The notes below the pieces were generated by a model. It had not been told where the DNA came from and made no database searches. It saw only the letters and a program-made list of their open reading frames with translations. This document shows positions 3 through 25,269 of a stretch of DNA of 26,344 bases, in pieces. The stretch comes from a virus (lineage: Duplodnaviria; Caudoviricetes). The stretch is from IMG/VR virus record IMGVR_UViG_3300033416_000028, positions 1-26,344 of that record; one strand, 5' to 3'. The position numbers and the translations under genes are program-made. Position 1 is the first letter of the stretch; every line of letters starts with the position of its first letter.

Positions 3-3000
3 GAGCCAACCTCGATCGAAAAGCTGGCCATCACCCAGATCAAGCCTGACACCCTGGCCAGAGTCTCTGATGATGAGGTCCGTGAGGTGTGGCTCAGGCT
101 GCACCAATGGTTTGCCAACGCGGTGAAGCAACGCAGGGCCACGGAGGACTTTATCAACGCAGCTGTCTGGGTCCTGGACGAGTTCAAGCGCAGGGGGTTT
201 GAGGCCTCGGACTCACCGCTCAAGGAGGAGGCTGAAAAGCTGCGCTCCGTGCGCAAGGAAAAAGGGATCGTGGGCAGGCTGGAAAAGCTCCCCAGGGATC
301 TGGTGGTGGTGCGGGATTTCATCTGCCTGGTGGGATCCGCAGCCAAGGGCAAGGAAGATCCCAATGACATCGATCTGCTAGTGCGCGCTCCACGTCAGGA
401 GGATGATTGCCTGGTGCAGCTGGAAAACATCTGGCTCCCCATACGCAACGTGATGGACCCAGAAAAGCGTGATCTGCTGTCATTCCTTTGGAACGCGCAG
501 GGAGCGCACGGCACGCACTTTCCGCTCTATGACTTGGTGTTGCGCAGGAAGGATCAGATAGAGCAAACGATCGTCAAGGCTGACAAGCCACGGAGCGCGC
601 AGGGCCTGACGGCCTTGGATACCCAGGAGCGCACCAAGTCCCAGCGGAGGGCATTCTACAAGACAGAGGCCCAGTATAGGGAAGGCATCGATGGGGGGAG
701 TGCCCCGTGCATCCTCTGCGCATTCTACCAGCGCAGTGGTTTGTCAGAATACCCAGGCCCTGAGACATCCTCCTGCCAGGTGGTGGAGGGCAGCGTCAAC
801 CCATTCGGAACCTGTACCCTCCACATCAATGCCCTGGCCCAGGCCAAGGCCACGCAGCAAGCCACGGAGGCTGGAACCCTCAAGGTTGACCTGGGGTGTG
901 GGGATGCAAAGCCTGACGGGTTTTTCGGGATCGATATCAAGCCAGGCCCCAGCGTGGACAAGGTGGCCAACCTGGAATGGGGCATCCCGCTTGCCAGCAA
1001 CAGCGCAGCCGTGATCCGAGCAAGCCACGTGCTGGAGCACCTCATGGACAAGGAGCACGTGATGAGGGAGATCCACCGTGTGCTCAGGCCCGGGGGTGAG
1101 CTGGTTTTTGAGGTCCCCAGCACCAAGGGTGAGGGGGCCTTTGCGCACCCTGGGCACCGCTCATTCTGGAACAAGTCCGCGTTCCTTTTCTGGGTGCAGG
1201 ATGAGCTGAGGGAGGATCGGCCACGGTTCAACATCAAGGAACTTGAGGAGGTCACCCAGGGAGATCTCACCTATGTGAGGGGCACCCTGGTGAAGCCAGA
1301 ACAGGTGCAAAAGGCCCTTGCCCCTGGGCAACGCTTCATCCCTCCCAAACCTGCCATGGCTGGGACCACGGAGCTGTTTGAGGTGGAGGACCTCTGGAGC
1401 TGGGCAAAGGACAAGCTCCCCATTGCCGTGGAGCCAAAGCACAATGGGTTTCGCGCTGTGGTGAACAAGGCAGGTGAGCGCGTGTCCGTGTGGTTCGAAG
1501 GGCAGATCGGCAAGGACTTGTCCGCGCGGTTCCCTGAGCTGGTGGAGGCTGTCCGCAAGCTGGAGGGAAACCTTGTCCTGGATGCTGACGTGGGCATGGA
1601 GCGCGGAGGCAAGCGCGTTCCAAGGATTGACTTGATGCGCCTCAATTCGGACAAGCCAGAGCTGAGGCCCGGGGAGCGCGTGGTCCTCACCGTGTTTGAT
1701 GCCCCCTACACAGGCGAGGACTTGACGGGCAAGCCATTCAAGGAGCGGAGGCAGGAGCTGGAGCGCGTCCTGGGCCAGGGCAGCGATCTGATCAGGACCT
1801 CACCCCTGCGCTGGGTCAACAGCGTGGAGGAGCTGCGCTCAGCCGCGCGCTGGGCATTCGGTCACGATCGCTCTGAGGGCCTGGTGGCCAAGACGGCACG
1901 CGGCACCTATGAAACGGACGGTTCCACAAATGAGTGGAGCAAGCTCAAACGGGTGGCAGAAATCAAGGTGATCGTGCTCAAGGTGCAAACCACCAAGGCT
2001 GGGGATTTCAACTATTGGGGAGGCCTCCTCCCTGGTGGGTCGGACTGGGAGAACACCACGGAGCTGAATGGCCATGAATATGTGAACCTCGGCAAGACAT
2101 TCAACACCAACCTCAAGGCCAAGGTTGGGGACATCCTCACGGTGCAGGTGCTGGAACTCATCCCCAATGAGGAGGCACGATCCCTGGCCTGGCTGGGTCC
2201 GATGGTGATCGATATCGATACCACGCGCTCCCAGCCCTATCTGGCAGATCAAGCCATCGATGTGACAAGGAGGGCCAACGTGCTCCAGAAGTCCACGCAG
2301 CAAGTCCCCACCAAAGGACCCAAGGGTGCGCCTGTGGCCTTTGTGGGTGCCAGTCCTGGACGGTTTGAGCTGGCCAGGCGTGAGCCCCTGGTGGGGCCAG
2401 CTGGGGAAACATTCAATGACGTGTATCTGAAACCCCTGGGCCTCAGCCGTGATCAGGTGGTGCTGGCAAACGTGGTGCCCGAGCTGTTGCTGGAGGGTGA
2501 TGGACGGGTGAGGGAGCCAAACGATCAGGAGGTGGCAGAGCACCGTGAGGCGCTCCTGGCTGAGCTGCGGGATCTGAGCCCCAGGATCGTGGTGGCCCTT
2601 GGGCGCACCGCTCAGACGGCTCTGGGTGAGGCCGTGGATTTCACCCTGCCCCACCCGTCAGCCGTGCGCAGGTTCGGGGATCGCGGGGAGGTTGCACGCA
2701 AGCTGAAACGGATCAAGGAGGCCATCTCATCCAGCGTGGCAAAGCAACACCCCCGTGGGCTGGAGGAGGGAGGGGAGGACACGCGCGGTGCAGCTGCCAA
2801 TGATGACTGGTTTGAAAACTGGCAGGACTACCTCCCCAAATCAGGCAAGGGGAGGTTTGTCTATCAGCACCACTGGAGGGGAATCCCTGAGGAGGACTTG
2901 GGCAAAACTGATGCCCAGCTCCTGGACACAGGCCACAGCGTGCACGGAGATCTCAGGCTCCAGGGTGAGGATGGCCTCTGGGGATGGGCTGTGCTGATTG

Positions 3001-3983
3001 GGAGCGCAGCCGATAACAAGGCAGCTGGTGGTGACAAGCTCCTGGGCATGAAGCCAGGGCAGCCTGAAAAACTGCGGCTGGCTGCCAAGCTCCACCAGCC
3101 CGAGGCATGGCTGGACGTGGGGGTGGGCAAGCCATTGGTGGCAGAGCCAGGAGGCGCAGGGGCCACCTCCCAGACATCAGCAAAATTCTTTGCGCTTGAC
3201 CGTGGCACATATCAGCTTGGTGTGGCACGCAGGAGCGCGATCGAGATCTTTCTTGACGGAGAGCACGTCAAGGGTCGATACTTGTTACAGCTTGCAGAGT
3301 TCCCAGGTGAAGGTGGTGCGCAAGCCAGGCGCGTGTGGCTGATCGATAAGCCAGAAGATCAAACACCGATGGCTGAGCGCAGAGATCTTGGCGATGTCAT
3401 AGCCGAGTTGAGGCAAAAACAGCAAAGGTTTTTGATATGGGCAAAGCCGGGTGAGAAGCCCCAGCTCATTGATGTGAAAACCGGAGATGTGCTCAAGGCC
3501 TCAATAAGGGTGCCCATCCTAAAAGCTGATCCTGAAAAGCGCATTGTGTATGGGGCTGTCCTCGATCCCTATGGGGACAATGGCCCAGAGGAGGATGCGC
3601 ACGCTGACTGGATGCCCCCTGGTGAGGTTGAAAAGACAGCTCACGCATTCATGCAAGGCCCCAGGACCGTGGGGTTGCAGCATGAAAAAACCGCTGATGC
3701 AAAGGTGGTGGAGAGCTGGGTGGAGCAATACCCAACGCGTGAGGATTATCTGGCAGCCATGAAGCTGCAACCTCACAAGGTTTGGGAAAGGCCGTTCGGT
3801 TCTGACAAGGTGCATTCTGGATCGTGGTGCATGGGAGTGGAGCTGGGACCTAAGGAATGGGAGCTGTTCAAGGCAGGTGAGCTGAATGCCTTCTCCCCGG
3901 GTGGTGTTGGGATGCGCACTCCGATGTCACGATCGATCATGCCCCGTGTCACCTATGTGGAGCTGGTGGCCAGGCCCGTTTGA
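3..3983 (+). CDS. Multidomain prohead-protease polyprotein (NTase / HiPIP-like / methyltransferase / ATP-dependent ligase / UDG-like / LigD phosphoesterase-like / XkdF-type protease); 5'-truncated
   Basis: The frame is open from base 3 (EPTSIEKLAITQIKPDTLARVSDDEVREVWLRLHQW...), so the listed GTG at 87 is probably internal and the start lies upstream of the window. Domain motifs are listed in the sub-features. It sits directly before the scaffold and capsid genes. Confidence 0.9.
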   Translation, partial: EPTSIEKLAITQIKPDTLARVSDDEVREVWLRLHQWFANAVKQRRATEDFINAAVWVLDEFKRRGFEASDSPLKEEAEKLRSVRKEKGIVGRLEKLPRDLVVVRDFICLVGSAAKGKEDPNDIDLLVRAPRQEDDCLVQLENIWLPIRNVMDPEKRDLLSFLWNAQGAHGTHFPLYDLVLRRKDQIEQTIVKADKPRSAQGLTALDTQERTKSQRRAFYKTEAQYREGIDGGSAPCILCAFYQRSGLSEYPGPETSSCQVVEGSVNPFGTCTLHINALAQAKATQQATEAGTLKVDLGCGDAKPDGFFGIDIKPGPSVDKVANLEWGIPLASNSAAVIRASHVLEHLMDKEHVMREIHRVLRPGGELVFEVPSTKGEGAFAHPGHRSFWNKSAFLFWVQDELREDRPRFNIKELEEVTQGDLTYVRGTLVKPEQVQKALAPGQRFIPPKPAMAGTTELFEVEDLWSWAKDKLPIAVEPKHNGFRAVVNKAGERVSVWFEGQIGKDLSARFPELVEAVRKLEGNLVLDADVGMERGGKRVPRIDLMRLNSDKPELRPGERVVLTVFDAPYTGEDLTGKPFKERRQELERVLGQGSDLIRTSPLRWVNSVEELRSAARWAFGHDRSEGLVAKTARGTYETDGSTNEWSKLKRVAEIKVIVLKVQTTKAGDFNYWGGLLPGGSDWENTTELNGHEYVNLGKTFNTNLKAKVGDILTVQVLELIPNEEARSLAWLGPMVIDIDTTRSQPYLADQAIDVTRRANVLQKSTQQVPTKGPKGAPVAFVGASPGRFELARREPLVGPAGETFNDVYLKPLGLSRDQVVLANVVPELLLEGDGRVREPNDQEVAEHREALLAELRDLSPRIVVALGRTAQTALGEAVDFTLPHPSAVRRFGDRGEVARKLKRIKEAISSSVAKQHPRGLEEGGEDTRGAAANDDWFENWQDYLPKSGKGRFVYQHHWRGIPEEDLGKTDAQLLDTGHSVHGDLRLQGEDGLWGWAVLIGSAADNKAAGGDKLLGMKPGQPEKLRLAAKLHQPEAWLDVGVGKPLVAEPGGAGATSQTSAKFFALDRGTYQLGVARRSAIEIFLDGEHVKGRYLLQLAEFPGEGGAQARRVWLIDKPEDQTPMAERRDLGDVIAELRQKQQRFLIWAKPGEKPQLIDVKTGDVLKASIRVPILKADPEKRIVYGAVLDPYGDNGPEEDAHADWMPPGEVEKTAHAFMQGPRTVGLQHEKTADAKVVESWVEQYPTREDYLAAMKLQPHKVWERPFGSDKVHSGSWCMGVELGPKEWELFKAGELNAFSPGGVGMRTPMSRSIMPRVTYVELVARPV
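264..560 (+). other. Domain of ORF1: Pol-beta-superfamily (minimal) nucleotidyltransferase-like
   Basis: FICLVGSAAKGKEDPNDIDLLVR matches the hG[GS]-x9-13-DhD signature (GS at 333, DID at 366). Confidence 0.7.
660..825 (+). other. Domain of ORF1: HiPIP-like four-cysteine metal/Fe-S binding module
   Basis: AQY...CILCAFY-x15-CQVVEGSVNPFGTC, with Cys codons at 708, 717, 774 and 813. Spacing and flanking residues resemble HiPIP (CxxCxxY...CxxxxGxVxxxGxC). Confidence 0.55.
879..1295 (+). other. Domain of ORF1: class I SAM-dependent methyltransferase (Methyltransf_11-like)
   Basis: KVDLGCG (motif I), GIDI, ASHVLEHL and MREIHRVLRPGG. Confidence 0.85.
1320..2288 (+). other. Domain of ORF1: ATP-dependent polynucleotide (DNA) ligase, adenylation domain plus probable OB-fold
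   Basis: Motif I EPKHNGFR (Lys at 1437), III VLDADV, IIIa VFD, ERRQEL, IV SEGLVAK, V WSKLKR, followed by a beta-rich OB-like region. Confidence 0.85.
2300..2730 (+). other. Domain of ORF1: uracil-DNA glycosylase superfamily (family 4-like, divergent)
   Basis: GPKGAPVAFVGASPGRFE...PLVGPAG, LANVV, PRIVVALGRTA and LPHPSA match family-4 UDG motifs A and B. Confidence 0.8.
2850..3360 (+). other. Domain of ORF1: LigD-type 3'-phosphoesterase-like
   Basis: RFVYQHH...HGDLRL...WAV...RLA...DRGTY...LDGEHVKGRYLL...WLIDK parallels the LigD PE consensus FVxQxH...HYDFRL...WAV...RLA...DxGxY...LxGxxLxGRWxL...WLLxK. Confidence 0.7.
3525..3983 (+). other. Domain of ORF1: XkdF-like (Peptidase S78/HK97-fold) prohead serine protease
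   Basis: EKRIVYGAVLDP, DAHADWM..GEVEKTAHAFM, GLQHE (His at 3681), VVESW, GSWCMGV, W...KAGELNAFSPGG (Ser at 3894). Confidence 0.8.
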
Positions 3984-3999
3984 CTTTTTGGAGGAGCAC

Positions 4000-4929
4000 G
4001 TGGGAAATAAAGGACTGACAGCCTTGACTGACTTGCGGGCAGGTGAGGTTTCCCTTGTCACGAGAGGCGCAAACAGGAAACGGCGATTTCCAATCTACAA
4101 ACAGGAGAACGGGACAATGGACGAGCAAACGATCGAGGTGCTCAAATCAGTGATGGAAACCGAGGTGGACGGGGAGGCTCAGCTGGATGAGGTTTTCAAG
4201 GCTGACAAGGTTTCCAAGAAGGGCCTTGAGGCGATCCGTGGTGCGCTGCGGATCCTCAATGGCTTCAAGGAGGAGATGCCCAAGGACGTGATGTCCAAGC
4301 TGGCAGGCCTGGCAGGGTACGCTCCCCCGGGAAAGGACGAGTATCCCAAACCCAAGGAGGATGAGATGGACAAGAACAAGGGCAAGGTGAACAAGGCAGA
4401 TGAGCTGCCCCCTGAGGTCAAGGCGATCCTCGATCCGATCATGAAAGCTCAGAACGATCAGATCACCGCGCTCAAGGAGCAGATCGCCAAGTCCGATGAG
4501 GCGCTCACCAAGGAGCGGGATCAGCACGCGCTGGAGGCCTGGATCAAGAAGTGTGAGCAGGAACTCAGCTTCTATCCGGGGAAGTCCAGCGAGGACCTCG
4601 GAAAGATGCTGCACGTGCTGGCCAAGCAAGACGGCAAGCTGGCAGAGGAGCAATTCAACAGCATGAAGCAAGCCAGCGCCACGATCGAAAAGAGCGCGCT
4701 CCTCACCGACGTGGGCCTCAAACAGGGTGACACCACGCGCACGGGAGTCACCAACGGCACGGCCTGGGATGCCATCTGCAAGCTGGCTGACGGGATCGTG
4801 GAGAAGTCCGAAAAGAACGTCTCCAGACACGCAGCGGTTTCGCAGGTGCTCAAGTCCGAGAAGGGCAGGCAGCTGTATGCCCAGTATCTGGAGGAGCACC
4901 CTGCGCAGATCGAGTCTTTCAGGCGCTAA
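4000..4929 (+). CDS. Capsid scaffolding protein with an N-terminal protease-like strand
   Basis: GGAGGAG at 3990-3996 precedes GTG at 4000, a better start than the listed 3886. The protein is charged and coiled-coil-like, begins LTDLRAGEVSLVTRGAN, and lies between the protease and capsid genes. Confidence 0.75.
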   Translation: MGNKGLTALTDLRAGEVSLVTRGANRKRRFPIYKQENGTMDEQTIEVLKSVMETEVDGEAQLDEVFKADKVSKKGLEAIRGALRILNGFKEEMPKDVMSKLAGLAGYAPPGKDEYPKPKEDEMDKNKGKVNKADELPPEVKAILDPIMKAQNDQITALKEQIAKSDEALTKERDQHALEAWIKKCEQELSFYPGKSSEDLGKMLHVLAKQDGKLAEEQFNSMKQASATIEKSALLTDVGLKQGDTTRTGVTNGTAWDAICKLADGIVEKSEKNVSRHAAVSQVLKSEKGRQLYAQYLEEHPAQIESFRR

Positions 4930-4986: not shown

Positions 4987-5361
4987 ATGGCATTCGAGAA
5001 TCCGCATGAAATCCTTGAGGGGCTCTTGGCTGGGGAGGATCTTTCCCTGGCTCAGGACAGCCTGGTGGTGATTGACAACACGGGCAAGGCCGTGCTCAAC
5101 ACCGTGGCTGGTGGAATCGTGGACGGTGTGCTCCTGGGCAAACCCACCACGGGGCAGGTGGCAAGCGTGGCCTGCGGTGGACGTGCGATCGTCAAGTGCG
5201 GTGCCGCAGTGGATCCCGGGGATCCCGTGGCCTCGGACGATCAGGGCAGAGCGATCAAAGCGCTCAGCGCCACGTTTGCCTTTGGCCGTGCCCTCACGGG
5301 AACCACCACGGCTGGGGAGCGCCTAACCGTCAACCTCAAAGCCTTTGGGTTCCTGCCCTAA
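4987..5361 (+). CDS. Capsid decoration/cement protein (DUF2190-like)
   Basis: 124 aa, Gly/Ala/Val-rich (GAAVDPGDPVASDDQGRA...GRAL), just upstream of the capsid gene, with a GAGGTG RBS. Confidence 0.75.
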   Translation: MAFENPHEILEGLLAGEDLSLAQDSLVVIDNTGKAVLNTVAGGIVDGVLLGKPTTGQVASVACGGRAIVKCGAAVDPGDPVASDDQGRAIKALSATFAFGRALTGTTTAGERLTVNLKAFGFLP

Positions 5362-5386: not shown

Positions 5387-6370
5387 ATGCCTACCAGCAA
5401 CCCCACTCCGTCTGATGTCCATGTGAATCAACCCCTAACCAACATCTCCGTGGCGTATCTCCAGGATACCAGGGAGTTCATCGCCACGCAGGTGTTTCCC
5501 AACGTGCCCGTGGCAAAGAACAGCGATGTGTTCTTTGTGTTTCCCAAGGGGCAGTGGTTCCGATCGGAGGCCCGTGAGAGGCCCCTGGGCAGCGAGTCCG
5601 CAGGCACACGGTATGACGTGGAGAAGGCCCCCGCGTACAACGCCACGGTCAAGGCCCTCCATGTGGACATCGATGATCAGCTGCGCGCCAATCAGGACGC
5701 GCCTCTGGATCTGGACATGGCCAGCTCTGAGCTGGTGACCCGTGGCTTGCTCCTGCGGAGGGAAAAAGACTTCGCGGACAAGTTCTACAAGACGGGCGTC
5801 TGGACGGGATCCACCACGGGCACGGACATTGTGCCAGGCACAAAGTGGAACGCCACGGGATCCACCCCCATCAAGGACATCAGGACCCAGATGAGGAGCC
5901 TGAAAACGAAATCGGGTTTCAGGCCCAACAAGCTGATCCTCGGTGAGGATGTTTGGGATGCCATCCAGGACAACGGCGATTTCCTCGATCGCATCTCGAT
6001 CAGCCGTGACAAAATCGTGACCCTTGACCTCCTGGCCACGGTGCTGGGTCTGCCCCCGGGTGGCGTGCTGGTGGCAGGCGCGATCCAGAACATCGCGATC
6101 GAGGGAGCACCGAGCGGGGATGATCTGCGCCTGCTGTTCCAGGACGCTGCCCTCCTGTGCTACGCAGCCGATCGGCCTTCCCTCATGATGCCCTCCGCTG
6201 GGTACACCTTCAGCTGGACGGGCTATCTGGGGGCCTCCGCAGATGGCCTCAGGATGCTCCGTTTCAGAATGCAGCATCTGCGCTCCGATCGGATCGAGGG
6301 TGAGATGGCTTATGACCTGCAAGTCATCGCCTCCGATCTGGGTGTGTTCTTTGACAACGTGCTGTCCTGA
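5387..6370 (+). CDS. Major capsid protein (HK97 fold)
   Basis: 327 aa, with HVNQPLTNISVAY...FIATQVFPNVPV and RPNKLILG motifs typical of this capsid family, a GAGGAGG RBS, and the expected synteny. Confidence 0.88.
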   Translation: MPTSNPTPSDVHVNQPLTNISVAYLQDTREFIATQVFPNVPVAKNSDVFFVFPKGQWFRSEARERPLGSESAGTRYDVEKAPAYNATVKALHVDIDDQLRANQDAPLDLDMASSELVTRGLLLRREKDFADKFYKTGVWTGSTTGTDIVPGTKWNATGSTPIKDIRTQMRSLKTKSGFRPNKLILGEDVWDAIQDNGDFLDRISISRDKIVTLDLLATVLGLPPGGVLVAGAIQNIAIEGAPSGDDLRLLFQDAALLCYAADRPSLMMPSAGYTFSWTGYLGASADGLRMLRFRMQHLRSDRIEGEMAYDLQVIASDLGVFFDNVLS

Positions 6371-17631: not shown

Positions 17632-18186
17632 ATGGGTATTGTCTACAAGGACGCGCACTCCACCGAGGCCCTGGCCAGGCTGATATCTCAATTCAAGGGC
17701 AAGCCAAACCTGGAGGCCATCCTCAGCGTGGTGATCAAACAGGTGCAGGACCTTGAGAACGTCAGCTTTGAACTTCTCACCGAGCGATTCATTGACGTGG
17801 CAGAGGGTGCACAGGTTGACGGGTTTGGAGCGATCGTGGGTGAGGCCCGTGAGGGCAGAGGGGATCCTGAGTACAAAACTGCAATCAAGGCCAGGATGCA
17901 ATTGAACCTAGGGAACGGCACCCCTGAGGATATCATCCAGCTCATCCGTGGCATCGCTGGTGACGTGCGTGTGCGCATCTATGACTTTTACCCTGCGGCA
18001 TTCATGGCTGAGATTGTGGATCCGCTCGATCCAGCCATCGTGGATCCGTCACGGATCCTGGGCATTGTCCAGGCAGGCAAGCCAGCTGGGGTGTGGTGCA
18101 TTGTTGCCTTTGGCGTCATTGGTTCATTCCGCTTTGACGCTGGCCCTGGATTTGACATTGGCAAATATGGAGGAGCACTAGGATGA
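17632..18186 (+). CDS. Baseplate wedge protein (DUF2612/gpI-like)
   Basis: LISQFKGKPNL, IDVAEGAQVD..G.IVG..R, KPAGV motifs; follows baseplate J. Confidence 0.8.
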   Translation: MGIVYKDAHSTEALARLISQFKGKPNLEAILSVVIKQVQDLENVSFELLTERFIDVAEGAQVDGFGAIVGEAREGRGDPEYKTAIKARMQLNLGNGTPEDIIQLIRGIAGDVRVRIYDFYPAAFMAEIVDPLDPAIVDPSRILGIVQAGKPAGVWCIVAFGVIGSFRFDAGPGFDIGKYGGALG

Positions 18187-20213
18187 CGGCCACCTATACC
18201 AAACCGGCAAAGACCCCCCGATGGGCTGACACCTCCAGCAACATCCTTGAGCCACCCGAGGCCAAGAAGGATGAGGGCTGGCTGTTCGAGGAAATCCCCC
18301 CCAGCTCGTTTGAGAACTGGAGGACAAACCTGGCAGGATCTTGGGTCAAGTGGATTGATGAGCGCCTGTTTGACGGGGCCAGCAAGGATCAGCTCCTCAT
18401 CAAGTCACCAGGCAGCGCAGTCAACGCGCTCCTCATCACGGACACCTATGTCAAGTCACACCTGGATTTCAGGGTGGAAGGTGATGATCTGGGCATGGAG
18501 GTGGACGGCACCAGCTCAAGGCGCATCTACTTTGACGCGGCAAAACAGAACTGGCTGGGATACAACCTGGGCGCCTCCAGAGTGGAGCTGTACGCAGGGG
18601 GTGCCTTGGCCCTCTGGGCTGATGCCACGCAGTGTTTTATCAATGGGGACATTGTGCTGGGTGACGATCTGAGCGTGCCAGGTGGCTTGTCCGTTGGGAT
18701 CGCAACCCCCACCATCGTGGATGACGTGATCCAGCTGGGTGACGCGGATCTCAGATGGGAATTGAACGCGGGCAGTCCACAATTTGTTTTCGATCACTTT
18801 GGTGGGACAATCGATGCACTCAGGTTTGATAGAGTCAACAGCCGTTTCTCATGGCTGATCGCCAACACGGAGGAGGCGCGCTTATCGGCCTCTGGCCTGG
18901 CCATCGCAAACGGCCTCTATGTCGGAGATGTCGCTGGCACCCTAACCGATAACGTGATCGTGGCTGAGGGATCGGGTGGATTTGGTGGATCCCTGAGAGT
19001 AGGGTTTGCAGGAGCTTCCATCCTTTCAGGCGTTTTGGAAATCGGAGATACACAATTCTACCTCCGACAACAAAGCGGGAACCCAAGTATCACTTTTGAT
19101 TCTAACGATGGTTTCAATTTCGATCGAACCCAGAACAGATTAGCGCTCAATGTAAATGTGGGTGTCAGAGTTTGGATGGGTGAGTCTGGCATGACGGTTT
19201 TGAACGGCCTCTATGTTGGCGGGGCTGGCTGGCCAGTCACGGATGACAGGATCACCTGCGAGGGTGACGGGGTTTTTTGGGGTGGCCTGCGTGTTGGCTT
19301 CTCTGGATCTCCCACGGCTGACAGAATAGAGCTGGGTGACCCAAACATGTTTTTGCAGTTTGCAGCCGATGTGTGTGAATTTGACTTTGCAGCTGGCAGC
19401 TCGTTTTCTTTCAGCCGGATAAATTCGCGCTATGCCTGGCTCATCGGCACCACCGAAAAAATGAGGCTGTCCACCTACGGACTGTCAATCGGAAACGGCC
19501 TCTATGTAGGGGATGCCACGGTGCAGCCTTCCGACAATGAGGTATATGCGGAGGGCTATGTCAAGGCCATGGGTGGCAGGCTATACCTTGGCGCAAATGA
19601 TTATCTGAGCTGGGATGAAACCAATCTCCAAACGATCCTCAATGGCGTGGAACAGTCCAGGCTGTCATCCATCGGACTTGCCATTGCCGCAGGGTTGTAC
19701 GTCGGATCAGCGTCTGGCACTCCTCCTAACAGCGATTCGATCTATGCTGAGGGAAACGTGCAATGTGGCTCCATGCTGTACGGTGCAACCTTAGGAGCTG
19801 CGGGAACTCCGATCGGGAGTGGTTACCAGACCAACGCCTACGTGACCCATCTTTACCAAGTCAATCACGCAAATTCCATAATCGAAGTCCACAATCACCT
19901 TGTCCCCACCACGTCCAATGATTTCAGCCTGGGAAGCGATGCCCTTCTAAAATATTGGAGCGCGATCTATGCAATCTCAGGGAAATTTTTTGCCGTCCAG
20001 ATTGGCAGTGGGATCCCATTGGGTGCCTCTGCCGGATATCTAAAATATTCGGGATACACCGTGGATAAAACCGGAACCAATTATCCAGGGGTGATCGAGT
20101 CAGACATTTGGTATACCTTCACTGTGGTGAAGTGGATCAAGGTTTGCCTTGCTGCGTATGAAATGGCAATCCCATGCTTCGATTGGGGAGAGGCAACCTA
20201 CGTTTCCCCGTGA
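18183..20213 (+). CDS. Tail fibre protein with internal ~97-aa repeats
   Basis: N-terminal baseplate anchor (WA......EP...KK..GW...E.PP....NW), repeated FDR...RLS..GL.I.NGLYVG modules, and a C-terminal P..SNDFSLGS....W..IY fibre motif. Confidence 0.8.
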   Translation: MTATYTKPAKTPRWADTSSNILEPPEAKKDEGWLFEEIPPSSFENWRTNLAGSWVKWIDERLFDGASKDQLLIKSPGSAVNALLITDTYVKSHLDFRVEGDDLGMEVDGTSSRRIYFDAAKQNWLGYNLGASRVELYAGGALALWADATQCFINGDIVLGDDLSVPGGLSVGIATPTIVDDVIQLGDADLRWELNAGSPQFVFDHFGGTIDALRFDRVNSRFSWLIANTEEARLSASGLAIANGLYVGDVAGTLTDNVIVAEGSGGFGGSLRVGFAGASILSGVLEIGDTQFYLRQQSGNPSITFDSNDGFNFDRTQNRLALNVNVGVRVWMGESGMTVLNGLYVGGAGWPVTDDRITCEGDGVFWGGLRVGFSGSPTADRIELGDPNMFLQFAADVCEFDFAAGSSFSFSRINSRYAWLIGTTEKMRLSTYGLSIGNGLYVGDATVQPSDNEVYAEGYVKAMGGRLYLGANDYLSWDETNLQTILNGVEQSRLSSIGLAIAAGLYVGSASGTPPNSDSIYAEGNVQCGSMLYGATLGAAGTPIGSGYQTNAYVTHLYQVNHANSIIEVHNHLVPTTSNDFSLGSDALLKYWSAIYAISGKFFAVQIGSGIPLGASAGYLKYSGYTVDKTGTNYPGVIESDIWYTFTVVKWIKVCLAAYEMAIPCFDWGEATYVSP

Positions 20214-23289: not shown

Positions 23290-25269
23290 GTGGCGAGGAT
23301 ATTTACCAACGCAGCCCAGCAATATCTGGCAGCTCCCAGCTCCACCGTCTTGAATTTGGGCACGGGTGATTTCACCGTGGCTGCCTGGGTTCTGCGCCCA
23401 GCCGTTGGACAGAATGACACCATCATCACGGGAAAAAGAAACTGGGATAATGGTACGGGCTGGGAGCTGAAAATCAGGGATGCTGGGAACCGCACGGTAA
23501 GATGGGATGTGCAAGGAACGCTTTCAGCTAGGCAGCGCGCTGAGGGTGCCATCCCTAACCTCAATGATGGAAACTGGCATCTCCTGATCGGACGGCGATC
23601 CGCAGCTGCCTTTGTGGACCTCTGGGCTGATAATGCCCTGATCAACACCAACAGCAACCCCACCTCAGGGAGCGTTGACAACGCTCTCAACTTCCACATC
23701 TCAGGGTCACCTGACACGCTTGTCCGATGCTTTGACGGCTGGATCGCGGAGGTGTCGATTTTCAGGCGCCTCCTGTCAACAGCCGAAATGACAGAGCTGT
23801 ATCTGCGCTTTTCCGCCTATTTCAAAAGGCCCTCCGTGTGGTTCCCCCTCATTGGGCGCTATTCGCCCGAGCTTGATCTGTTCGGTGGATCCCTGGCCAC
23901 CCTTTACAATGCCCCCACCACTGGTGCACACCTGCGCATCAGAGCCCCAACGATCGGGCAAGCTCCCTTTGCTGGGGAACAGCAAGCGCTCCAGGGCAGC
24001 ATCGATGCAACGTCAACCCTCAGCGCGATCCTGGCAGGGAGCGTGCCAATCAGTGGAACGCTCACAGCTCAGAGCACCACGGCTGTCTACCTGTCACGCG
24101 ATCGTGGGATCGCTGGGTCCTCCCAGGGCACAGCCACCCTTGACGCTGCGCTGGGCGCCTCTGTACCCATCAGCGCATCCTGCGATGGGGCGGGGCAGCT
24201 CCAGTGTTACCTTGAGCGGGATCGTGGCTTCACGTCCAGCTGCGCAGCCATGTCCAGCCTGTCAGCCTACCTCTCTGCCTGGGTTCCCTTGGCTGGGGAC
24301 TGCCCAGCGCTCTCCGATCTGAATTGCTACCTGAGGCGCGATCGTGGCTTCTGGGCCTCGGTGGACGGGCAGGCTGCGCTCCAGGGATACCTGATCGCTG
24401 ATGTGCCTATCGCTGGATCCCTCCACGGGCTGGGCCAGCTGGACGGTTACCCGAGCGCGCAATGGGCAATCGCTGGGATGCTGCACGGGGATGGGTCCGT
24501 GTTCTGTTTCCTCCGCGCCTCTGTTCCCATCAAGGCCGTTTGCGCTGGGGCTGGAGTCCTCCAGGGCAGGTTGGTCTCAGGCTCTGACATGGCAAGCTCC
24601 CTGCGCGCGGAGGCCATCCTCACAGGAGCGCTCAGTGCCAGCCTACCCATCGCGGGATCGTGCGATGCCACAGCCATCCTCCAGGCTGTCATCACGCGGA
24701 TCCGTCAGGTGAGCGGATCCCTGGATGGCCAGGGTGACCTCACCGCACAGTGGATTTTCAGGCGCTCCCTCCGTGGACTTATTACAGGCCAGTCCGACGT
24801 GGACGGGCTGCTGTCCATCGCAGCCGCGCTCAATGGCTACATCGGATCCATGTCCTGGCTGTCTGGTAAGACAACATCACAGCTTGCCCTCAAGGCCAGC
24901 TGGGGTGGAGTCAGCTCCCTGAGCGCACGGCTGATGAGGGCCACACCGCTGAGCGGATCGCTGCCTTCCACTTCCGAGCTGGAGGCATTCATCAGGAGGC
25001 GTTACCAGATCGCTGGGCAGCTCCCCGGGCAAGGTGAAATCATCGGCACGCTGGGGGCAATCGTGCCAGTGCTGGGCAGCATCCATGGGGACTCAGCGCT
25101 GGATGCCCTGGCCCACTATGCCTGGACGCTGCGGGGATCAATGGTGGGTGCTGGCTACCTGCGCGGGATGCTACTCATCCCAGGCGAAATTGACACCACC
25201 TCCGTGGGTGGACGGATCCACTTCCTGGGGAACGGTGTGGGTGGGTGGATCAGGAGGATCGGGAGATGA
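23290..25269 (+). CDS. LamG/concanavalin-A-like domain protein with ~20 tandem 20-aa repeats
   Basis: DFTVAAWV, NDGNWHLL, LWAD, FDGWIAEVSIFRR.LS..E are LamG-like, followed by the periodic region 23986-25185. Confidence 0.8.
   Translation: MARIFTNAAQQYLAAPSSTVLNLGTGDFTVAAWVLRPAVGQNDTIITGKRNWDNGTGWELKIRDAGNRTVRWDVQGTLSARQRAEGAIPNLNDGNWHLLIGRRSAAAFVDLWADNALINTNSNPTSGSVDNALNFHISGSPDTLVRCFDGWIAEVSIFRRLLSTAEMTELYLRFSAYFKRPSVWFPLIGRYSPELDLFGGSLATLYNAPTTGAHLRIRAPTIGQAPFAGEQQALQGSIDATSTLSAILAGSVPISGTLTAQSTTAVYLSRDRGIAGSSQGTATLDAALGASVPISASCDGAGQLQCYLERDRGFTSSCAAMSSLSAYLSAWVPLAGDCPALSDLNCYLRRDRGFWASVDGQAALQGYLIADVPIAGSLHGLGQLDGYPSAQWAIAGMLHGDGSVFCFLRASVPIKAVCAGAGVLQGRLVSGSDMASSLRAEAILTGALSASLPIAGSCDATAILQAVITRIRQVSGSLDGQGDLTAQWIFRRSLRGLITGQSDVDGLLSIAAALNGYIGSMSWLSGKTTSQLALKASWGGVSSLSARLMRATPLSGSLPSTSELEAFIRRRYQIAGQLPGQGEIIGTLGAIVPVLGSIHGDSALDALAHYAWTLRGSMVGAGYLRGMLLIPGEIDTTSVGGRIHFLGNGVGGWIRRIGR
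23986..25185 (+). repeat. 60-nt (20-aa) period degenerate repeat array
   Basis: Consensus about P-h-x-G-S-h-x-G-x-x-x-L-x-x-x-L. YL.RDRG recurs with RDRG at 24097, 24217 and 24337 (120-nt spacing). Confidence 0.8.

Follow-up and report, generated by a model that had tools for sequence, protein, structure and literature searches.

Analysis of a 26,344 nt stretch of DNA from an uncultured phage (IMG/VR record IMGVR_UViG_3300033416_000028; hereafter the window, with coordinates counted from its start), which holds the head and contractile-tail module of a partial genome, revealed that one short motif, a hydrophobic residue, any residue and Lys followed by Ala, Ser or Gln, recurs both throughout the scaffold gene, open reading frame (ORF) 2, and at domain joints of the long polyprotein ORF1 that precedes it. 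This observation is confirmed, and its interpretation as a code for cutting is probable but unproven. Judging from sequence statistics and homologues, the motif is in all likelihood recognised by a serine protease that the phage itself encodes for head maturation, and it appears likely that in the prohead the scaffold is shredded and ORF1 divided into intact repair enzymes, both through this HK97-type Lys code. By analogy with HK97, the cut is proposed to fall after the Lys (P1), with mainly Val or Ile at P3 and Ser, Ala or Gln at P1'. A preliminary description of the window had postulated one specificity for both proteins; statistics, homologues and controls all lend good support to the shared Lys-specific code, but one of the postulated sites (846) fails and the motif alone does not suffice.

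ORF1 (3..3983, + strand) encodes 1326 aa within the window and is open at its 5' end; a full-length, near-identical record (P0001, 1375 aa) adds 49 residues. The same architecture is present in the close relatives P0002, P0003 and P0006, so that ORF1 is unlikely to be an assembly join. Genes for scaffold, cement and capsid proteins lie downstream, and in locus L001 a MuF gene lies directly upstream, which gives ORF1 a head-module setting. The 151 polyprotein relatives fall into 36 architectures, with several unrelated domains per chain. The modules and sites of ORF1 are listed below, where the bar marks the proposed cut and conservation is the strict motif counted among aligned homologues.

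12..254, + strand: helical domain N1, family not assigned, following a conserved leader that lies outside the window; no usable Atlas match
291..554, + strand: minimal Pol-beta-type nucleotidyltransferase (NTase); G111, S112, D122, D124 and D177 invariant; PF01909 E 0.002, under the curated cut-off
570..581, + strand: junction site IVK|A (K192, codon 576), strict in 9/11 homologues
654..836, + strand: tentative HiPIP-like four-Cys module; PF01355 E 0.02-0.03 in P0006 and P0011; Atlas 0.88, a lead only
840..851, + strand: claimed site QAK|A (K282, codon 846), not supported, strict in 0/7 homologues and at 0/4 joints between HiPIP and methyltransferase
867..1304, + strand: class I S-adenosylmethionine (SAM) methyltransferase (MTase); VIA Z 14.3, root mean square deviation (rmsd) 3.1, 133 residues aligned to 1vl5
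1305..1316, + strand: junction site VQK|A (K437, codon 1311), strict in 6/25 by column and at 6/8 MTase-ligase joints
1317..2282, + strand: ATP-dependent DNA ligase, adenylation and OB-type parts; VIA Z 23.9, rmsd 2.8, 297 aligned to 3l2p
2283..2294, + strand: junction site LQK|S (K763, codon 2289), strict in 19/30
2313..2729, + strand: family-4-like uracil-DNA glycosylase (UDG) domain with altered first motif and without the cluster cysteines; activity uncertain
2736..2747, + strand: junction site VAK|Q (K914, codon 2742), strict in 18/19 and at 23/26 joints between UDG and phosphoesterase
2784..3482, + strand: LigD-type 3'-phosphoesterase (PE) domain; VIA Z 12.9, rmsd 1.6, 117 aligned to 3p4h; PF13298 E 7e-4
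3489..3527, + strand: double site VLK|A (3495) and ILK|A (3522) preceding the protease, strict in 12/30 and 30/32, respectively
3525..3983, + strand: XkdF (PF14550) protease body with candidate catalytic His1227 (codon 3681) and Ser1298 (codon 3894), lacking the last strand of the HK97 fold

Structure comparison set fold limits at residues 288-434 for the MTase and about 434-760 for the ligase, and the AlphaFold model has low-confidence stretches at residues 750-763, 916-926 and 1167-1172; the NTase and HiPIP boundaries were drawn from alignments because the N-terminal model is poor there. The earlier placement of the ORF1 sites at domain boundaries holds for K437, K763, K914, K1165 and K1174, which lie in or beside linkers by the AlphaFold model and fold limits, and is unsupported for 846. 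Five of the seven ORF1 joints in the window carry a site, the N1-NTase joint having no strict one, and the Lys of the second member of the double site (3522) is retained in 107/124 relatives. Fifteen of the 16 Lys codons previously listed are in frame with the flanks ascribed to them, and the Lys of the scaffold IYK|Q begins at 4099 rather than 4098. Further matches absent from that list occur at 4624 in the scaffold and at 1467, 2838 and 3870 inside ORF1 domains, and the motif Lys codons of the scaffold are those at 4099, 4144, 4198, 4393, 4444, 4489, 4624, 4690, 4804 and 4852.

For statistics, the motif was counted as [VILMF]-x-K-[ASQ], Phe having been added before the controls were seen and without effect on the window counts. 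The density of sites claimed for the scaffold was borne out, with 10 found against 1.76 expected (p<=0.0005, 2000 shuffles); ORF1 has nine against 3.7 (p=0.015, shuffles), and the remaining 28 window genes together have 23 against 16.2, none individually with p<0.05. Within ORF1 the predicted preference for linkers over domain interiors is also seen, as the motif includes 6/14 linker lysines and 3/69 core lysines (Fisher p=5e-4), the p-values of the window being flattering, since core limits were drawn by hand and the window had itself supplied the motif definition. Among 94 loci, 73 scaffolds were complete, and these reduced to 23 sharing under 50% identity. In the 23 non-redundant scaffolds, 195 of 830 lysines lie in the motif (4.6x) versus two of 233 arginines (0.17x), while eight other residues placed at P1 give 0.75-1.46x (Glu 0.85x); P3 is chiefly Ile or Val, and P1' is chiefly Ser, Ala or Gln.

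Domain joints were analysed in 151 polyproteins ending in the XkdF protease (150 cluster representatives and P0001), a junction being defined as 4-60 residues between cores recognised by domain hidden Markov models (HMMs). The motif was found at 157/247 junctions versus 37 expected, its Arg version at 15 and its Glu version at 24. When the joint into the protease was excluded, 67 of 151 junctions retained a motif versus 15 expected; 38 of these 151 are leader-N1 joints, none of which has one. At least one site is present in 24/30 junction types, and in P0014, P0016 and P0018 both ends of an inserted helical module that separates NTase from ligase bear a site. Boundaries taken from Lys-masked BLAST lay within 10 aa of a site in 177/635 cases (28%) versus 18.6% at random, Arg and Glu showing no effect. 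A first masked-BLAST boundary test was noisy (odds ratio 1.6), and junctions based on domain HMMs were adopted because the odds ratio did not improve with stricter BLAST support (1.8 to 1.4). Pooled over eight cargo core types, 36 internal sites were counted versus 47 expected (0.76x), and cores of NTase, N1, phosphoesterase, 2H and the inserted helical module contain internal sites at 0-0.8x.

The scaffold protein gp22 of T4 contains the hydrophobic-x-Glu form 11 times versus 3.0 expected and the Lys form once versus 1.8, and the delta domain of HK97 has five Lys sites versus 0.9, K103/S104 included. The scaffolds of T7, P22 and SPP1 have one or two Lys sites, at expectation; lysines are scarce in lambda Nu3 and T7 gp9. 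T7, P22 and SPP1 are not known to have a maturation protease. In cultured XkdF phages, 9-15 sites occur versus 1-2.5 expected in 10/14 scaffolds or protease-scaffolds, and the XkdF gene and the motif co-occur in phages of Bacillus, Lactococcus, Arthrobacter, Pseudomonas, Rhizobium and Roseobacter; the window scaffold itself has no tblastn match in cultured phages. Five phages picked by capsid similarity as negative controls were dropped in favour of T7, T4, lambda, SPP1 and P22, their scaffolds being motif-rich; an adjacent XkdF body is present in three of them, and four match the strand module described below. The capsid protein of 0105phi7-2 contains IEK11|A, and its residues 1-10 are missing from virions (PMC10219371). 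This N-terminus is compatible with a cut at IEK11|A.

The protease expected to read this motif is the last module of ORF1, which matches PF14550 with 54.9 bits versus a curated cut-off of 24. Residues H1227 and S1298 are invariant in 71 sequences, and the Ser at codon 3894 singled out earlier is Ser1298, invariant also in a 33-protein alignment; by analogy with H85/S140 of T4 the pair is a candidate for the catalytic residues. The protease is C-terminal in the polyproteins, 24-76 residues extending beyond the Ser motif in the 158 proteins where this motif was found. A three-domain model of the ORF1 protease aligned with T4 gp21 (5jbl) over 105 residues at rmsd 3.1 and VIA Z 6.2 (<8). The alignment covers residues 15-154 and stops short of the strand with Asp168, which we take to be the third triad residue. 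The order His-Ser-Asp is given for the triad in PMC5694885, and the weak fold match of the model to gp21 would dispute the opinion that XkdF is unrelated to T4-type peptidases (Iyer 2021). Sequence searches of solved structures found no protease, hhalign of the XkdF alignment versus HK97 gp4 alone gave no match, and a scan for HK97 gp4 relatives returned only sequences of 96-100% identity, unusable for a profile.

Sequence comparison suggests that the ORF1 protease is split, its last HK97-fold strand seeming to be supplied by the scaffold gene. The corresponding region and the genes that follow it are listed below.

4000..4929, + strand: ORF2, long form of the scaffold, with GTG start, Shine-Dalgarno (SD) sequence at 3990-3996 and 10 motif sites
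4015..4101, + strand: putative protease-completing strand module of EVSLV type, E16 and N25 invariant in 13 scaffolds, ending at IYK|Q
4103..4119, + strand: nested start with SD at 4103-4107 and in-frame ATG at 4117, predicted to give a short scaffold without the strand
4987..5361, + strand: cement or decoration protein, motif absent
5387..6370, + strand: major capsid protein of lambda-E type, without delta domain, motif not enriched

An EVSLV-type segment also opens the single-chain XkdF proteases of cultured phages, where it is N-terminal to the body. Of the N-termini bearing the segment, 13/17 match the head-protease family phrog_3017; one scaffold N-terminus aligns with positions 3-35 of phrog_3017 (E 7e-6), with positions 127-161 of 165 of PF04586, the canonical HK97 protease (E 0.087), and with positions 150-186 of phrog_3244 (E 0.011). 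The strand alignment falls without gaps on HK97 gp4 140-160, ending K-S (hhalign P 0.057). The segment is absent from 175 polyproteins, with a partial match at E 0.32 as the sole exception, and lies at the start of the next gene in 88/89 loci with enough downstream DNA, never in the same ORF, some of these loci being duplicates and two matches weak. Because the strand is missing from ORF1 and located at the start of the scaffold gene, ORF2 is probably a co-subunit of the protease as well as its substrate; its earlier description as a substrate agrees with its density of motifs and is incomplete in this respect. A strand conserved at the C-terminus of ORF1 might in part replace the missing one. 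An in-frame Met just past the strand is found in 22/23 scaffolds and an SD-like run in 20, so that long and short scaffold forms are likely. The 4099 site overlaps the SD of the nested start at 4117, and its downstream letters are consequently constrained in part by that SD.

These data are consistent with the following scheme. ORF1 is made as a single chain of modules with the protease body last. The long form of the scaffold would then lend its strand, as homology suggests, tethering ORF1 to the core and probably completing the active site, so that cargo loading and activation would coincide in the prohead. The protease would cut exposed sites, shredding the scaffold, with about one site per 30 residues, into pieces of 15-65 residues, and the severing of the strand at 4099 could switch the enzyme off. 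ORF1 would yield intact pieces of 151-326 residues, namely N1 with NTase, HiPIP with MTase, ligase, UDG-like domain, phosphoesterase and protease; the release of intact domains within the prohead is considered reasonably likely. In the least certain step, these pieces, too large to exit like scaffold peptides, would stay in the head, and the retained enzymes would probably act on ends or nicks of the phage DNA at packaging or after entry. Useful delivery of the enzymes to the next host is possible, with somewhat more doubt than confidence. Tentatively, the findings may be generalised to a modular cargo system widespread in tailed phages, in which domains flanked by hydrophobic-x-Lys are slotted before an incomplete protease, a minority long scaffold loads and arms the protease only in the prohead, the scaffold is destroyed and the protease disarmed, and the freed ligase, PE, NTase, MTase and UDG-like domains are delivered with the genome as an end-repair kit.

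Several results weigh against this scheme. Internal sites are in excess in UDG-like cores (135 versus 44 expected, 3.1x; 3.3x in distant relatives and 0.5x in 33 close ones), in protease cores (115 versus 55, 2.1x) and in the ligase cores of close relatives (41 versus 21, 1.9x); with sites inside folded domains, the motif cannot be sufficient and exposure must matter. The strict motif is absent from 90/247 junctions, including all 38 leader-N1 joints and HiPIP-MTase, and many junction sites travel with one domain end and are thus not independent events. Enrichment is weak in HSTV-1 (three sites versus 0.8), and none was seen in the scaffolds of cultured L338C, RcDurkin and HJ05 and of locus L014. 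For 0105phi7-2 the digest was tryptic, K11 was in some cases still present, and its status is described by the authors as undetermined (PMC10219371). An HK97-like protease can be loose, that of phi12 cutting R128|L and presumably K87|Q (PMC8569155), and the scores linking the strand to the canonical fold are weak (E 0.01-0.09; hhalign P 0.057).

The excess of sites in the UDG-like and protease cores of distant relatives would suit a code for clearance only, in which the cuts free the protease and empty the head while the enzymes act earlier as a polyprotein or are discarded; the degenerate first motif of the UDG-like domain points the same way, and the retention of cargo in virions is itself inferred. 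We regard this explanation as unlikely, because the scaffolds are peppered with sites while the NTase, N1, phosphoesterase, 2H and inserted helical modules avoid them, and newly inserted modules have sites exactly at their ends. It is also conceivable, and very unlikely, that the motif serves for docking or capsid targeting, being bound and left uncut. Such tags would be expected near the N-termini of portal, MuF and capsid proteins, where the motif does occur in XkdF phages, but its match to the proven scissile site of HK97, its P3-x-P1 form shared with the protease motifs of T4 and SPN3US, and the ten copies in the scaffold fit degradation better.

Some phage proteins are matured by host proteases (PMC8569155), and the ORF1 protease alone looks incomplete, so the motif might be read by a host enzyme or another phage protease. 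That it tracks the XkdF gene across phages of six host genera, that His and Ser are invariant in the XkdF body, and that no further protease family was matched in the window genes of this partial genome make this highly improbable. An artefact of helix periodicity, of linker composition or of SD relics of gene fusion would account for a hydrophobic P3 and a small P1' three residues apart and for the SD overlap at 4099, and the Lys at 3522 may be structural, as HK97 gp4 has I-K at the equivalent place. This explanation, already largely refuted by the comparison of P1 residues and the scaffold controls, has very little left to recommend it: Glu, Asp, Gln, Ala and Ser at P1 occur at about 1x and Arg at 0.17x, the helical scaffolds of T7, P22, SPP1 and T4 show no Lys excess, AAA and AAG are both used for the motif Lys, and no ATG follows the ORF1 sites 576, 1311 and 2289, the only three inspected (by eye). 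No DNA repeat, promoter or terminator that would explain the motif was found in the window. Release of intact ORF1 enzymes together with breakdown of the scaffold remains the preferred reading.

Some other features of these polyproteins and their neighbourhood were observed. The leader (P0001 residues 1-48, upstream of the window) heads 93/151 polyproteins irrespective of cargo, has no Atlas match and is possibly a loading or oligomerisation tag. The UDG-like domain (2313-2729) is the most constant cargo (111/151) despite its degenerate first motif and missing cluster cysteines; a likeness to the UDG-like portion of a phage family-A polymerase (9qhs) was seen as well, and the domain may be a reader or structural module. 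In P0030, residues about 245-390 form a His-rich insert between NTase and UDG that begins at a motif site, and a similar His pattern is found at the protease ends of L338C, RcDurkin and HJ05. MuF-type genes upstream of the polyprotein (L001, L004, L010, L012, L013 and L015) have a motif site in their first 20 residues, which resembles a removable targeting propeptide. In Arthrobacter phage Mufasa8 (L019, 1503-4505) a portal-NUDIX-MuF chain has motif sites at residue 11 and in the NUDIX-MuF interval (670-774), and in Rhizobium phage RHph_Y60 (L187, 2225-2962) a ParB-like domain and an XkdF body form one fused chain whose joint carries a relaxed site. L004 (904-2733) and L014 (4630-6879) contain additional long genes of the head module close to that of the protease; these have motif sites and may represent further cargo chains. 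Several XkdF genes carry the database label DNA methyltransferase. Elsewhere in the window, a LamG-domain tail protein (23290-25269) contains a repeat of about 40 residues (120-nt period), and a tail-fibre-like protein (18183-20213) contains internally repeated units of about 97 residues and matches nothing in Pfam. Six metagenome-assembled genome (MAG) contigs holding relatives gave no credible host.

Head processing by a single motif (T4, SPN3US) has been published, as have polyvalent proteins that end in a protease (Iyer 2017); the junction code and the protease split were not found in a literature search drawn mainly from papers outside subscription. Within that same literature no specificity of the XkdF protease family was found in print, and the motif provides a candidate for it. 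The prediction made in 2017 that polyvalent proteins are processed is converted into exact, testable cut sites, and domain boundaries of uncharacterised phage head proteins can be read off the sequence. A way in which cargo loading is coupled to protease activation is suggested by the split, and the same split layout is present in cultured phages, where it can be tested. Prohead proteases can be sensed by the cyclic oligonucleotide-based antiphage signalling system (CBASS) (bioRxiv 10.64898/2026.03.04.709575), and the split may keep the protease quiet in the cytoplasm, where such sensing can occur, the connection with CBASS being our inference.

The closest biochemical precedent is HK97, where the delta domain of gp5 is cut at K103/S104 (PMC10275583), a Lys|Ser bond as stated in the preliminary description; this bond and four more sites in residues 1-103 fit the motif of the window phage, and the gp4 strand 140-160, ending K-S, aligns with the scaffold N-terminus. 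The HK97 protease is a single chain without cargo and its scaffold is fused to the capsid protein, whereas in the window phage the scaffold is a protein of its own, the motif is not enriched in the capsid protein, and the split protease carries seven modules. A single short motif serves for scaffold breakdown, self-cleavage and trimming of ejected enzymes in T4, SPN3US and phiKZ (PMC10052503, PMC5694885), being I/L-x-E for T4 gp21 (bioRxiv 10.64898/2026.03.04.709575) and A-x-E for SPN3US gp245. The window phage and its relatives resemble these systems in that a single P3-x-P1 motif is over-represented both in the scaffold and at the boundaries of substrates. They differ in P1, which is Glu there and Lys here (Lys 4.6x, Glu 0.85x), and in that the substrates there are separate proteins losing propeptides, not domains cut from a chain containing the protease.

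Iyer 2017 (PMC5512222) described polyvalent proteins of the head module in which an assemblin-like peptidase is always last, proposed that they are processed and drew the analogy to RNA-virus polyproteins. ORF1 is similar in being multi-domain, in varying in architecture among relatives, in its head-module setting and in having the peptidase last; a cleavage motif, scaffold, LigD or glycosylase was not found in the main text searched, and the supplements may list these architectures. The likeness to viral polyproteins put forward in the preliminary description is upheld by the embedded protease and by the sites at 5/7 ORF1 joints, the comparison itself having been made in 2017. The single-chain XkdF protease-scaffolds of Bacillus phage 0105phi7-2 (gp5), B83 (gp9), Lactococcus phage 28201 and HSTV-1 (gp13) share with the window phage the protease body, the strand module and the enrichment of the motif (weak in HSTV-1). 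In these the strand is N-terminal to the body within one chain, a permuted order, and enzyme cargo is absent, whereas ORF1 departs from the single-chain HK97-type layout in that its last strand is on another polypeptide.

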